The translations under genes and the position numbers were made by a program. The notes under the pieces are model-generated. The model saw only the letters and a list, made by a program, of their open reading frames with translations. It was not told the origin of the DNA and did not search any database. This document shows positions 1 through 4,893 of a stretch of 4,893 nucleotides of DNA, piece by piece. Numbering within the stretch: position 1 is the stretch's first letter; every line of letters begins with the position of its first letter. Source of the DNA: a virus (Duplodnaviria; Heunggongvirae; Uroviricota; Caudoviricetes); IMG/VR virus record IMGVR_UViG_2660238190_000007, positions 1 through 4,893 of that record. The stretch is one strand, 5' to 3'.

Positions 1-546
1 ATGGAAGTCAACAAAAAGCAGCTGGCTGACATTTTCGGTGCGAGTATCCGTACCATTCAGAACTGGCAGGAACAGGGAATGCCCGTTCTGCGAGGCGGTG
101 GCAAGGGTAATGAGGTGCTTTATGATTCTGCCGCCGTCATAAAATGGTATGCCGAAAGGGATGCTGAAATTGAGAACGAAAAGCTGCGCCGGGAAGTTGA
201 AGAACTGCGGCAGGCCAGCGAGACAGATCTCCAGCCAGGGACTATTGAGTACGAACGCCATCGACTTACGCGTGCGCAGGCCGACGCACAGGAGCTGAAA
301 AATGCCAGAGACTCCGCTGAAGTGGTGGAAACCGCATTCTGTACTTTCGTGCTGTCGCGGATCGCAGGTGAAATTGCCAGTATTCTCGACGGGATCCCCC
401 TGTCGGTGCAGCGGCGTTTTCCGGAACTGGAAAACCGACATGTTGATTTCCTGAAACGGGATATCATCAAAGCCATGAACAAAGCAGCCGCGCTGGATGA
501 ACTGATACCGGGGTTGCTGAGTGAATATATCGAACAGTCAGGTTAA
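1..546 (+). CDS. nu1: Terminase small subunit (lambda gpNu1-like), apparently full length at 181 aa
   Basis: Complete ORF from ATG at 1 to TAA at 544-546. The translation (MEVNKKQLADIFGASIRTIQNWQEQGMPVLRGG...) matches lambda gpNu1 from memory along its whole length with only scattered substitutions. The N-terminal helix-turn-helix-like segment (QLADIFGASIRTIQNWQ) fits the cosB-binding domain. The 3' end overlaps the A start by 26 nt, as in lambda. Confidence 0.93.
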   Translation: MEVNKKQLADIFGASIRTIQNWQEQGMPVLRGGGKGNEVLYDSAAVIKWYAERDAEIENEKLRREVEELRQASETDLQPGTIEYERHRLTRAQADAQELKNARDSAEVVETAFCTFVLSRIAGEIASILDGIPLSVQRRFPELENRHVDFLKRDIIKAMNKAAALDELIPGLLSEYIEQSG

Positions 547-877
547 CAGGCTGCGGCATTTTGTCCGCGCCGGGCTTCGCTCACTGTTCAGGCCGGAGCC
601 ACAGACCGCCGTTGAATGGGCGGATGCCAATTACTATCTCCCGAAAGAATCCGCATACCAGGAAGGGCGCTGGGAAACACTGCCCTTTCAGCGGGCCATC
701 ATGAATGCGATGGGCAGCGACTACATCCGCGAGGTGAATGTGGTGAAGTCTGCCCGTGTTGGTTATTCCAAAATGCTGTTGGGTGTTTATGCCTACTTCA
801 TAGAGCATAAGCAGCGCAACACACTTATCTGGTTTTCTTTTGTGCGCTTGCAGGCCAGCTTGGGATCAGCCGCCTGA
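521..877 (+). pseudogene. A: Terminase large subunit (lambda gpA-like) N-terminal fragment: about 104 native codons followed by 14 out-of-frame codons and a stop
   Basis: Translation MNISNSQVNRLRHFVRAGLRSLFRPEPQTAVEW...EHKQRNTLIW matches the lambda gpA N-terminus from memory. After the W codon at 830-832 the reading continues as FSFVRLQASLGSAA and stops at TGA 875-877. The DNA beyond 832 is C-gene sequence read in the wrong frame. Lambda gpA is about 641 aa, so the ATPase and nuclease regions are missing. Confidence 0.85.
831..834. other. Deletion junction 1: A codon 104 joined to the interior of C (about lambda C codon 29) at a shared GGTT
   Basis: Left of the junction reads as lambda A (...ACACTTATCTGGTT). 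Right of it reads as lambda C (GGTTTTCTTTTGTGCGCTTGCAGGCCAGCTTGGGATCAG = ...VFFCALAGQLGIS). GGTT is common to both parental sequences as I recall them. The join is out of frame: A is in frame 2 and C in frame 1. Confidence 0.75.
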
Positions 878-981
878 CGGATGCAGTATCCGGCGACAGC
901 CTGACTGCCGGAGAGGCACCCGCGGCGCTGGCGTTATCCGGTGATGATGACGGACCACGACAGGCCCGCAGTTATCAGGTC

Positions 982-2067
982 ATGAACGGCATCGCCGTGC
1001 TGCCGGTGTCCGGTACGCTGGTCAGCCGGACGCGGGCGCTGCAGCCGTATTCGGGAATGACCGGTTACAACGGCATTATCGCCCGTCTGCAACAGGCTGC
1101 CAGCGATCCGATGGTGGACGGCATTCTGCTGGATATGGACACACCGGGCGGGATGGTGGCGGGAGCATTTGACTGTGCTGACATCATCGCCCGTGTGCGA
1201 GACATAAAACCGGTATGGGCGCTGGCCAACGACATGAACTGCAGTGCAGGTCAGCTGCTTGCCAGCGCCGCCTCCCGGCGTCTGGTCACGCAGACCGCCC
1301 GGACAGGCTCCATCGGCGTCATGATGGCTCACAGTAATTACGGTGCTGCGCTGGAGAAACAGGGCGTGGAAATCACGCTGATTTACAGCGGCAGCCATAA
1401 GGTGGATGGCAACCCCTACAGCCATCTACCGGATGAGGTCCGGGAAACACTGCAGTCCCGGATGGATGCAACCCGCCGGATGTTTGCACAGAAGGTGTCG
1501 GCATATACCGGCCTGTCCGTGCAGGCTGTGCTGGATACCGAGGCTGCAGTGTACAGCGGTCAGGAGGCCATTGATGCCGGACTGGCTGATGAACTTGTGA
1601 ACAGTACCGATGCGATCACCGTCATGCGTGATGCACTGGATGCACGTAAATCCCGTCTCTCAGGAGGGCGAATGACCAAAGAGACTCAATCAACAACTGT
1701 TTCAGCCACTGCTTCGCAGGCTGACGTTACTGGCGTGGTGCAAGCGACGGAGGGCGAGAACGCCAGCGCTGCGCAGCCGGACGTGAACGCGCAGATCACC
1801 GCAGCGGTTGCGGCAGAAAACAGTCGCATTATGGGGATCCTCAACTGTGAGGAGGCTCACGGACGCGAAGAACAGGCATGCGTGCTGGCCGAAACCCCCG
1901 GTATGACCGTGGAAACGGCCCGCCGTATTCTGGCCGCAGCACCACAGAGTGCACAGGCGCGCAGTGACACTGCGCTGGATCGTCTGATGCAGGGGGCACC
2001 GGCACCGCTGGCTGCAGGTAACCCGGCATCTGATGCCGTTAACGATTTGCTGAACACACCAGTGTAA
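982..2067 (+). CDS. C: Prohead protease / minor capsid protein C (lambda gpC-like, S49 peptidase family), N-terminally truncated; 361 aa from the first in-frame ATG
   Basis: The frame is open from 811 and C-homologous from 832 (lambda residue about 29), but has no ATG, GTG or TTG before 982 (about lambda Met79). Translation MNGIAVLPVSGTLVSRTRALQPYSGMTGYNGIIARLQQAASDPMVDGILLDMDTPGGMVAG... matches lambda gpC from memory. Stop is TAA at 2065-2067. The native start and about 28 N-terminal codons were lost to deletion junction 1. Confidence 0.8.
   Translation: MNGIAVLPVSGTLVSRTRALQPYSGMTGYNGIIARLQQAASDPMVDGILLDMDTPGGMVAGAFDCADIIARVRDIKPVWALANDMNCSAGQLLASAASRRLVTQTARTGSIGVMMAHSNYGAALEKQGVEITLIYSGSHKVDGNPYSHLPDEVRETLQSRMDATRRMFAQKVSAYTGLSVQAVLDTEAAVYSGQEAIDAGLADELVNSTDAITVMRDALDARKSRLSGGRMTKETQSTTVSATASQADVTGVVQATEGENASAAQPDVNAQITAAVAAENSRIMGILNCEEAHGREEQACVLAETPGMTVETARRILAAAPQSAQARSDTALDRLMQGAPAPLAAGNPASDAVNDLLNTPV
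1672..2067 (+). CDS. nu3: Scaffolding protein Nu3 (131 aa), translated from an internal in-frame start within C
   Basis: In-frame ATG at 1672 preceded by AGGAGG at 1662-1667. Translation MTKETQSTTVSATASQADVTG...NDLLNTPV matches lambda gpNu3 from memory. The nested C/Nu3 arrangement is the established lambda organisation. Confidence 0.75.
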   Translation: MTKETQSTTVSATASQADVTGVVQATEGENASAAQPDVNAQITAAVAAENSRIMGILNCEEAHGREEQACVLAETPGMTVETARRILAAAPQSAQARSDTALDRLMQGAPAPLAAGNPASDAVNDLLNTPV

Positions 2068-2076
2068 GGGATGTTT

Positions 2077-2409
2077 ATGACGAGCAAAGAAACCTTTACC
2101 CATTACCAGCCGCTGGGCAACAGTGACCCGGCTCATACCGCAACCGCGCCCGGCGGATTGAGTGCGAAAGCGCCTGCAATGACCCCGCTGATGCCGGACA
2201 CCTCCACCCGTAAGCTGGTTGCGTGGGATGGCACCACCGACGGTGCTGCCGTTGGCATTCTTGCGGTTGCTGCTGACCAGACCAGCACCACACTGACGTT
2301 CTACAAGTCCGGCACGTTCCGTTATGAGGATGTGCTCTGGCCGGAGGCTGCCAGCGACGAGACGAAAAAACGGACCGCGTTTGCCGGAACGGCAATCAGC
2401 ATCGTTTAA
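2077..2409 (+). CDS. D: Head decoration protein D (lambda gpD-like), 110 aa, apparently intact
   Basis: ATG at 2077 with AAGGG at 2066-2070 about 6 nt upstream. Translation [27 protein letters not shown]...[12 protein letters not shown] matches lambda gpD from memory with a few substitutions. Stop is TAA at 2407-2409. The upstream ATG at 2071 would add MF, but lambda gpD begins MTSKE. Confidence 0.93.
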
Positions 2410-2426
2410 CCTGACCCTTCATCACT

Positions 2427-2451
2427 AAAGGCCGCCTGTGCGGCTTTTTTT
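2427..2451 (+). terminator. GC-rich hairpin followed by a T-tract in the D-E intergenic region (intrinsic-terminator-like)
   Basis: AAAGGCCGC-CTGT-GCGGCTTT forms a stem GCCGC/GCGGC (2431-2435 with 2440-2444), extendable by flanking A-T and G-U pairs, followed by TTTTTTT at 2445-2451. A second T-run at 2458-2464 lies just before the E start codon. Confidence 0.5.
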
Positions 2452-2464
2452 ACGGGATTTTTTT

Positions 2465-4318
2465 ATGTCGATGTACACAACCGCCCAGCTGCTGGCGGCA
2501 AATGAGCAGAAATTTAAGTTTGATCCGCTGTTTCTGCGTCTCTTTTTCCGTGAGAGCTATCCCTTCACTACGGAGAAAGTCTATCTCTCACAAATTCCGG
2601 GACTGGTAAACATGGCGCTGTACGTTTCGCCGATTGTTTCCGGTGAGGTTATCCGTTCCCGTGGCGGCTCCACCTCTGAATTTACGCCGGGATATGTCAA
2701 ACCCAAGCATGAGGTGAATCCGCAGATGACCCTGCGTCGCCTGCCGGATGAAGATCCGCAGAATCTGGCGGACCCGGCTTACCGCCGCCGTCGCATCATC
2801 ATGCAGAACATGCGTGACGAAGAGCTGGCCATTGCTCAGGTCGAAGAGATGCAGGCAGTTTCTGCCGTGCTCAAGGGCAAATACACCATGACCGGTGAAG
2901 CCTTCGATCCGGTTGAGGTGGATACCGGAGCTTTGTGGAAGCGTACAGCCGTCGGATTAACGAATTTCGCCTGGATCAACACATCCGGCGATACATATGA
3001 TATTTACGTTGAGATTGGCAATTATGCGACGAGTGTAAATATCCATTGGGATTGTACTACAAATGCGTCAGTTTCTATTTATACCTCGCCAACATATTCA
3101 GCGAGTAAGCCTTCCAGCGTTACCGGTGGTGTTGTTTATACGATGTATAGCTCACATCAGAAACCTACACCATCAGATATTGGAGCGCTGCCAACGACTG
3201 GAGGGACTATTTCAGGTCCGTTGTCTGTTACTGATGGGATCACCGGGGCACTGAAGGGGAACGCCGATACCGCGACGAAACTTGCGGCAGCCCCAAAAAT
3301 TAACGGTGTTAAGTTTGATGGCTCGGCGGATATTAACCTCACGCCGGAAAATATTGGTGCATTTGCCCGACGTTCGACGGGGGCTTATGCGGATTCGGAT
3401 GGAGCCGTTCCCTGGAATGCCGAATCAGGCGCTTACAATGTCACCCGCTCTGGCAACAGCTATATTCTGGTTAACTTCTATACCGGAGTCGGAAGTTGCC
3501 GGACCTTGCAGATGAAGGCACATTACAGAAATGGAGGTCTGTTCTACCGTTCCTCAAGAGATGGCTATGGTTTTGAGGAAGACTGGGCAGAAGTTTATAC
3601 CTCGAAAAATCTTCCACCAGAAAGCTACCCAGTCGGCGCACCAATCCCGTGGCCATCAGATACCGTTCCGTCTGGTTATGCCCTGATGCAGGGGCAGACT
3701 TTTGACAAATCTGCTTACCCGAAACTTGCAGCCGCTTATCCGTCAGGTGTGATCCCTGATATGCGTGGCTGGACGATTAAGGGCAAACCTGCCAGTGGTC
3801 GGGCCGTATTGTCTCAGGAACAGGACGGCATTAAATCGCACACCCACAGCGCCAGCGTATCCAGTACGGATTTGGGGACGAAAAACACATCGTCGTTTGA
3901 TTACGGAACCAAATCCACGAATAACACCGGGGCGCATACCCATAGTATTAGCGGGACTGCAAATAGTGCCGGTGCGCACCAACACAAGAGTTCCGGTGCA
4001 TTTGGTGGCACGAACACGAGCATTTTCCCTAATGGTTATACCGCGATTTCAAATCTAAGCGCGGGGATTATGAGCACAACAAGCGGTAGTGGCCAGACTC
4101 GTAATGCAGGGAAGACATCATCAGATGGTGCTCATACCCACTCGCTGTCCGGCACTGCTGCAAGCGCAGGCGCACACGCACATACTGTCGGTATTGGTGC
4201 TCATACGCACTCCGTTGCGATTGGTTCACATGGACATACCATCACCGTTAACGCTGCTGGTAACGCGGAAAACACCGTCAAAAACATCGCATTTAACTAT
4301 ATTGTGAGGCTTGCGTAA
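2465..4318 (+). CDS. Chimeric ORF of 617 aa: N-terminal 153 aa of major capsid protein E fused in frame to a 464-aa side tail fibre C-terminal region (Stf-like)
   Basis: ATG at 2465 gives [34 protein letters not shown]...[14 protein letters not shown], which matches lambda gpE residues 1-153 from memory. From 2925 the sequence no longer resembles E and encodes a tail-fibre repeat ([39 protein letters not shown]) and a C-terminus resembling lambda Stf ([69 protein letters not shown]...[31 protein letters not shown]). Stop is TAA at 4316-4318. The upstream ATG at 2438 lies inside the terminator hairpin and is rejected as the start. Confidence 0.85.
2924..2925. other. Deletion junction 2: E codon 153 joined in frame to the tail-fibre interior
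   Basis: The sequence follows lambda E through ...GTTGAGGTGGATA (to 2924). Lambda would continue TGGGCCGCAGTGAGG (MGRSEENN...), but the window continues CCGGAGCTTTGTGGAAG (TGALWKR...). The reading frame is preserved across the join. Confidence 0.75.
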
Positions 4319-4893
4319 TGGCATTCAGAATGAGTGAACAACCACGGACCATAAAAATTTATAATCTGCTGGCCGGAACTAATGAATTTATTGGTGAAGG
4401 TGACGCATATATTCCGCCTCATACAGGTCTGCCAGCAAACAGTACCGATATTGCACCGCCAGATATTCCGGCAGGCTTCGTGGCTGTTTTCAACAGTGAT
4501 GAGGCATCGTGGCATCTCGTTGAAGATCATCGGGGTAAAACGGTTTATGACGTGGCTTCCGGCGACGCGTTATTTATTTCTGAACTCGGTCCGTTACCGG
4601 AAAATGTTACCTGGTTATCGCCGGGAGGGGAATATCAGAAGTGGAACGGCACAGCCTGGGTGAAGGATACGGAAGCAGAAAAACTGTTCCGGATCCGGGA
4701 GGCGGAAGAAACAAAAAACAGCCTGATGCAGATAGCCAGTGAGCATATAGCGCCGCTTCAGGATGCTGTGGATCTGGAGATCGCAACGGAGGAAGAAACC
4801 TTGTTGCTGGAAGCCTGGAAAAAGTATCGGGTGTTGCTGAACCGTGTTGATACATCAACTGCACCGGATATTGAATGGCCAGCACTGCCGTAG
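4318..4893 (+). CDS. tfa: Tail fibre assembly chaperone Tfa (lambda gpTfa-like), 191 aa
   Basis: ATG at 4318 overlaps the stf stop as TAATG (4316-4320). Translation [79 protein letters not shown]... matches lambda Tfa from memory. Stop is TAG at 4891-4893. The last few codons differ from my recollection of lambda Tfa, which I think is slightly longer. Confidence 0.92.

Follow-up and report, generated by a model that had tools for sequence, protein, structure and literature searches.

We find that positions 3620-4318 of the 4,893-base stretch of DNA analysed here (the window) very probably encode a receptor-binding tip of the T4 gp37/lambda Stf type, in which seven His-x-His (H-x-H) motifs would serve as structural metal sites and which now appears as a relic within a capsid-fibre fusion. 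The window itself is a leftover of the late operon of a lambdoid E. coli prophage. Its positions 1-4882 are 100% identical to sequence in four Brazilian human isolates, IAL7250, IAL7252, IAL7254 and IAL7255. In IAL7255 the window sequence lies in a degraded prophage that is flanked by ybhC and ybhB-bioA, the lambda attachment region. The genes of the window are as follows.

1-546: intact small terminase gene of the Nu1 type
3' of the Nu1-type gene in window order: fragment of terminase A
After the terminase-A fragment in window order: fragment of an S49 head protease
2071-2409: head decoration gene
2465-4318 (from ATG) or 2438-4318 (from GTG), + strand: long chimeric ORF
4318-4893, + strand: Tfa tail fibre assembly chaperone gene, assigned by Pfam Caudo_TAP and likeness to lambda Tfa

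The long ORF would yield 617 amino acids from the lambda E start codon (ATG at 2465) or 626 from the upstream GTG at 2438. Residues are numbered here from the GTG and are therefore nine higher than in the sequence-only reading that preceded this analysis, which counted from the ATG. Pfam families follow one another along the ORF in the order Phage_cap_E (residues 14-164), Collar and Phage_fiber, and PHROGs assigns the protein to tail fibre families. Its parts, on the + strand throughout, are these.

2465-2924, + strand: residues 1-153 only of the lambda major capsid protein gpE, by identity to PDB 7SJ5/7VI9
2920-3619, + strand: fibre shaft modules upstream of the tip, with the deletion junction at 2920-2924
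3635-3778, + strand: phage tail Collar domain (Pfam PF07484), residues 400-447
3839-3985, + strand: predicted descending needle strand with motifs 1-3; between the first two of these lie two decapeptide repeats, xDxGTKxTxx
3986-4132, + strand: His-free hypervariable head, residues 517-565, the putative receptor-contacting end
4133-4237, + strand: predicted ascending needle strand with motifs 4-7, spaced by 14, 9 and 9 residues as in T4 gp37
4238-4318, + strand: conserved C-terminal strand (last 26 residues), by sequence identity, and stop codon

The likeness to the gp37 and Stf tip families that the sequence-only reading had proposed is significant across residues 395-626. A phmmer search against the PDB matched these residues to chain positions 27-242 of 2XGF, the crystal structure of the T4 gp37 tip, with E = 4.4e-83. 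By BLASTP the region is 65% identical to T4 gp37 residues 812-1026 (E = 2e-82; 64-65% over the tip as a whole, 231 residues) and 68% identical to the C-terminus of lambda Stf (orf-314; E = 1e-105). The Collar domain scores 46.4 bits (cut-off 24; E = 3.8e-12) and shares 83-88% identity with T4 and lambda. Over its last 26 residues the ORF shows 100% identity to lambda and 88% to T4. Domain D10 of T4 consists of residues 811-881 plus 1010-1026 (PMC6957217); as in gp37, the C-terminal strand would go back into the collar domain. Upstream of the tip, residues 305-400 match fibre S of phage Mu (8JU3, E = 4.7e-23), and a weak Pfam gp37_C match covers residues 323-389.

Immediately downstream lies the Tfa gene, whose first codon shares bases with the end of the fibre ORF in the sequence TAATG at 4316-4320. 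The Tfa protein matches Pfam Caudo_TAP (E = 2.4e-43). Its identity to lambda Tfa is 96.9%; to T4 gp38, the chaperone that gp37 requires for folding (PMC6957217), it is 28% (E = 1.4e-17). Sequence similarity, motif register, collar, C-terminal strand and chaperone gene of the gp37/Stf tip family are all found together at the sequence level. Homologous tips are widespread. Of 50,697 phage records covered by a translated search, 703 contain the tip, with lambdoid siphoviruses, T-even myoviruses and Salmonella and Yersinia phages among the matches, and large protein collections hold about 1,800 relatives.

Translation of the ORF at 2438-4318 contains exactly seven H-x-H motifs. Counted between the outermost histidine codons, those that open motif 1 and close motif 7, they span 3839-4237 (residues 468-600).

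3839-3847, + strand: motif 1, SHTHS, starting at residue 468
3935-3943, + strand: motif 2, AHTHS, residue 500
3977-3985, + strand: motif 3, AHQHK, residue 514
4133-4141, + strand: motif 4, AHTHS, residue 566
4175-4183, + strand: motif 5, AHAHT, residue 580
4202-4210, + strand: motif 6, AHTHS, residue 589
4229-4237, + strand: motif 7, SHGHT, residue 598

The seven pentapeptides and the span that they cover are exactly those given by the sequence-only reading, and the middle stretch that it quoted (ending KTSSDG) is likewise present in the ORF translation. Direct DNA repeats in this region are short, and apart from the recurrent coding of GAHTHS they account for nothing. All 14 histidines of residues 400-626 fall inside H-x-H motifs, and the remaining 399 residues contain only four histidines. 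Might the motifs then be a by-product of repetitive sequence rich in Gly, Ser, Thr, Ala and His, with no metal binding at all? The composition of the region is indeed biased, and DNA repeats of 12-18 nt join some of the motif-coding stretches. However, none of 100,000 composition-preserving shuffles of residues 400-626 reached seven motifs (maximum six), nor did any of 100,000 shuffles of the whole protein (maximum five). The seven-motif pattern is not chance. Moreover, among 43 homologues, in an alignment blind to motif spacing, nine of the 14 histidines are invariant and the other five are at least 90% conserved, while neighbouring head residues vary freely. In T4 the aligned motifs hold iron, and at two of the matching histidines substitution is not tolerated: replacement of gp37 H929 or H931, which correspond in the alignment to H514 and H516 of the ORF, by alanine abolished plaque formation, and the histidines are described as needed for folding (PMC6957217). 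We therefore give the by-product explanation next to no credence, and structural metal sites remain the preferred reading.

For a comparison motif by motif, T4 gp37, lambda Stf and the mEp332 fibre were taken from annotated phage records and aligned. The seven motifs of the ORF align one-to-one with T4 gp37 motifs at 883, 915, 929, 966, 980, 989 and 998. Successive spacings are 32, 14, 52, 14, 9 and 9 residues in the ORF and 32, 14, 37, 14, 9 and 9 in T4 gp37 (MAFFT, BLASTP). They are alike except between motifs 3 and 4, and both stems are thus in identical register with T4. The 14-residue Phage_fiber repeat of Pfam PF03335 was found over motif 2 (residues 495-508) as a marginal pass, at 21.2 bits against a cut-off of 20.

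With the homologous T4 gp37 crystal structure as a guide, the tip would be a trimer of intertwined chains. Each of the three would exit the collar, descend with motifs 1-3, build the head from residues 517-565, ascend with motifs 4-7 and end in the collar. At each of seven levels, two histidines from each of three chains, six in all, would hold one buried ion octahedrally on the three-fold axis, the ion being Fe(II) in T4. These ions would be structural, setting chain register and needle stiffness, and would make no contact with the receptor; specificity would lie in the hypervariable head, and folding would need the Tfa encoded directly downstream. Trimer geometry, the receptor, and which metal fills the sites and to what extent are inferred. 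AlphaFold2, run on a single chain of the 232-residue tip with a 43-sequence alignment, gave a mean pLDDT of 44.5, a pTM of 0.16 and almost no secondary structure; a lone chain of an intertwined trimer would have no reason to fold.

Relatives of the tip offer a view of the needle that draws on sequence only. Among 194 unique full-length tips, the number of motifs per tip ranges from 4 to 10, and 121 of them have no histidine outside H-x-H motifs. In 186 of the 194, the distance between motifs 1 and 2 equals 32 + 10 × (n − 2), n being the count of motif spacings of 9 residues on the C-terminal side, so that each additional C-terminal-side 9-residue H-x-H repeat is paired with an additional 10-residue repeat between motifs 1 and 2; the 194 tips are interrelated, and the rule may rest on few independent events. 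In 123 tips, the head is flanked on both sides by a motif spacing of 14 residues. Paired insertions on both arms are what a down-and-up hairpin needle would call for, and the rule supports an arrangement in which the descending and ascending arms would lie side by side. Lambda Stf illustrates one step of the rule. It has eight motifs against seven in the ORF, which follows the T4 layout; its additions are one IGAHQHPVV nonapeptide on the ascending strand and one SFDYGTKTTG decapeptide on the descending strand.

Which metal would occupy such sites? Seven iron atoms are spaced along the gp37 needle, bound by histidines of three chains (PMC6957217). H-x-H sites of this kind, octahedral and built from six histidines with two per chain, occur in gp37, R-type pyocin fibres and the P2 and phi92 spikes, and the authors consider their likely role to be folding and stiffness (PMC6116203). 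The fold and the sites could be as proposed here while the metal is zinc, nickel or another ion instead of iron. Octahedral sites of six histidines are not strictly specific for iron, which counts for such a substitution. Zinc occupied the H-x-H site in crystals of T4 gp12, but that protein had been refolded in a zinc salt (PMC6116203). Against this, the closest solved homologue, with 65% identity and the same seven sites, has iron, and iron is likewise bound by this motif in pyocin fibres and in the spikes of P2, phi92 and R2 (PMC6957217, PMC6116203). A metal other than iron is thus unlikely, and iron remains the preferred assignment for the putative sites.

The part of the tip that differs most from its relatives is the stretch between motifs 3 and 4. 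In a comparison of 111 tips that share this arrangement of motifs, the head has a mean column entropy of 2.23 bits, and the collar, both stems and the C-terminus have 0.06-0.30 bits. Head identity is 26% to T4, 30% to lambda and 100% to mEp332, whereas the ascending stem and C-terminus are 86-100% identical to lambda; the sequence-only reading had described just such a mosaic, lambda-like at the 3' end and divergent in the middle. In T4, gp37 residues 933-949 at the tip govern OmpC/LPS binding (PMC6957217), and they fall in the stretch equivalent to residues 517-565 of the ORF. We infer that residues 517-565 are the receptor-contacting, specificity-bearing head. With the histidine stems almost invariant and the head variable, the conserved histidines read as scaffold, in agreement with T4 genetics, and the His-free stretch as the specificity element. 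The motifs had previously been placed in the fibre tip; the assignment to a gp37/Stf-type needle stands by homology, but the motifs would line the shaft, and the head itself is the stretch free of histidine. Since the head is 15 residues longer than that of T4 and only 26% identical to it, T4 gives no receptor assignment.

A direct role of the metal in host recognition has also been put forward. In the 'Ferrojan horse' idea, discussed for H-x-H tail fibres (PMC11705849), iron itself is bait for host siderophore receptors, and the motifs would set host recognition directly. The pattern seen here, conserved motifs and a variable His-free head, is the opposite of what a specificity determinant would show. 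T4 binds OmpC and LPS through head residues, with a need in folding given for the histidines (PMC6957217), iron in pyocin fibres is described as buried inside the shaft (PMC6116203), and Ur-lambda Stf is reported to use OmpC. These observations make iron as bait highly improbable for this tip, and we retain the reading of the ions as buried structural elements.

How did a fibre tip come to be joined to a capsid protein? ORF residues 10-162 are identical to lambda gpE residues 1-153 (PDB 7SJ5, 7VI9), and the sequence is unrelated to gpE after residue 162. In other E. coli genomes, matches to the capsid DNA stop at window position 2924 and matches to the fibre DNA start at 2920, which indicates that the fusion arose by a deletion with no more than 5 bases of microhomology at its junction. 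This event put gpE 1-153 in frame with the final 464 residues of a fibre and removed the remaining head genes, every tail gene and the attachment end of the fibre; the reading frame happened to be kept. PGAP annotates the ORF in the identical genome IAL7255 as two abutting pseudogenes, a capsid gene without its C-terminus and a fibre gene without its N-terminus; in that prophage, of identical sequence, it annotates no tail genes from the head genes to tfa. The N-terminal virion-attachment region and the tail genes that go with a complete fibre gene are both missing. With the attachment end and all tail genes gone, no particle from this prophage would carry the fibre. The chimeric gene is a truncated fusion pseudogene in a defective prophage, a relic rather than a working fibre gene. 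A scan of 2300-4893 for promoters and terminators returned no more sites than shuffled sequence. In an exact look-up, a product of 626 residues beginning at the GTG was on record; one of 617 residues beginning at the ATG was not.

The needle sequence itself is apparently intact and shows no gap in a 368-residue alignment with the mEp332 fibre. In two draft assemblies the same fusion occurs together with 1,347 bp that are missing from the window between positions 834 and 831, and the window has therefore undergone a second, later deletion. Could a fusion with an intact tip and an intact Tfa have been retained for function, rather than as debris? It might act as a host-range cassette, available by recombination to incoming lambdoid or T-even phages, or be expressed as a soluble needle that occupies the receptor and blocks superinfection. 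Two observations give this an outside chance: many E. coli proteins are in-frame fusions of the same tip to unrelated phage genes (terminase, Nu1, portal, ClpP, Lom, ParB), and the exact fusion has stayed unchanged through the further upstream deletion. A relic of deletion remains the preferred reading. A site-specific recombination site at a cluster of fusions near ORF residues 346-349 was also considered and dropped. The boundary falls there in only 4 of about 260 proteins, two of those four differ by a 3-residue deletion only, and no invertase-type crossover sequence was seen by eye.

Set beside named systems, the tip combines features of several fibres. It shares with T4 gp37 the Collar domain, the seven motifs in order, the stem spacings and the C-terminal strand. 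It differs from gp37 in its longer, divergent head and in its chaperone, which is a lambda-type Tfa; the upstream fibre is lambdoid rather than T-even, truncated and joined to a capsid fragment. With (Ur-)lambda it has in common the stf-tfa gene order, with overlapping stop and start codons alike, as well as the closely similar Tfa (97% identity). The best match among the phage records searched is the fibre of the lambdoid phage mEp332, whose tip is 99.1% identical at the protein level, with 15 synonymous and 2 non-synonymous codon differences. Identity to this fibre is 90% from residue 259 on, and about 97% at the DNA level with mEp332/ev099 from window position 3386 to 4882. Unlike the window copy, which consists of the last 464 residues only, mEp332 and ev099 have apparently whole fibres (678 amino acids in mEp332; two adjoining tail-fibre CDSs in ev099). 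mEp332 is an isolated, viable phage with a near-identical tip, and since the two heads are identical in sequence, its receptor specificity and that of the window's tip are presumably the same. A paper search for the mEp332 receptor found none; only methods work on qPCR matched.

R-type pyocin fibres, P2 gpV, the phi92 spikes and T4 gp12 also bring three H-x-H copies together in an octahedral site on the trimer axis (PMC6116203). They have one such site per trimer, in contrast to the stack of seven predicted here. No sequence relationship of the ORF to these proteins was found except in the collar region of gp12. gp12 shares the collar fold (PMC6957217), and the short tail fibre chain 9CUY matches residues 391-483 (E = 6.5e-9).

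Tip structure, metal sites, chaperone dependence and mosaic evolution of the gp37/Stf family have already been described, and this sequence is a further member. For annotation, its value is that the ORF of 626 codons is to be taken for a capsid fragment followed by a fibre tip rather than for a novel protein. Residues 517-565, shared with mEp332, would be the place to look for receptor specificity. Finally, the needle-length rule, by which histidine layers appear to be gained or lost as a paired repeat of 10 descending and 9 ascending residues, may help in the design of chimeric fibres.

Two deletions and one set of module boundaries lie in the window:

Window 831-834: second deletion, after which a terminase-A fragment runs out of frame into the S49 protease gene; the missing sequence corresponds to positions 5047-6393 of contig L006.
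Window 2920-2924: in-frame deletion junction, where residue 153 of the lambda capsid protein gpE is joined to the last 464 fibre residues.
Window ~3542-3631: commonest upstream limits of similarity between the query ORF and its relatives, at ORF residues ~369 (37 proteins), ~386 (38 proteins) and 395-398 (~43 proteins).

At the capsid-fibre junction, matches to the capsid gene end at position 2924 and matches to the fibre gene start at position 2920; the two sides therefore share a microhomology of at most 5 bases. The overlap at the terminase-A/S49 protease junction is 4 bases, and the missing 1,347 bp are retained in contigs of GCA_000700205.1 and GCA_000700185.1 that are otherwise 100% identical to the window.

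Upstream of the capsid-fibre junction, a GC-rich inverted repeat with a T run behind it (aaaggccgcctgtgcggcttttttt) was spotted by eye at window 2421-2456, in the gap that separates the decoration gene from the start codon of the capsid gene; it was absent from the output of a terminator scan of window 2300-4893.

Where does the exchangeable part of the fibre begin? The three similarity limits mark the left edge of a collar-needle cassette. Directly 5' of the collar, ORF residues 305-400 (window 3350-3637) match the tail fibre protein S of phage Mu (PDB 8JU3, E = 4.7e-23) and give a weak match to Pfam gp37_C, under the cut-off for that family. This segment is a further mosaic module of the fibre.

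The needle itself (window 3839-4237) was compared with 194 related tips drawn from database proteins P0001-P0264, T4 and lambda. The needle is modular in length, and the number of H-x-H motifs per tip ranges from 4 to 10. In 186 of the 194 tips, every additional 9-residue H-x-H repeat in the ascending strand has an additional 10-residue counterpart, xDYGTKxTxx, inserted between motifs 1 and 2, which are then spaced by 32, 42, 52 or 62 residues. The 14-residue spacings on either side of the histidine-free head are likewise paired.

The last 11 bases of the window (4883-4893) differ from the IAL72xx E. coli genomes, which are identical elsewhere, and annotated tfaQ matches in other genomes run through to position 4893; together these suggest a recombinant 3' end. 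The window Tfa ends in ...WPALP, whereas the IAL72xx proteins end in ...WPVAPIG and lambda Tfa in ...WPAVPVME.

Many E. coli database proteins are unrelated phage genes fused in frame to the same fibre tip (P0007, P0041, P0047, P0048, P0050, P0055, P0059, P0069, P0070, P0080, P0091 and P0092). The partners are terminase GpA, Nu1, portal, a ClpP-type protease, Lom, a ParB-like protein and a DUF977 (PF06163) protein. P0048, a GpA-tip fusion, was found on 480 contigs. Repeated loss of the tail region, with the tip and tfa retained, seems to be a feature of decayed prophages.
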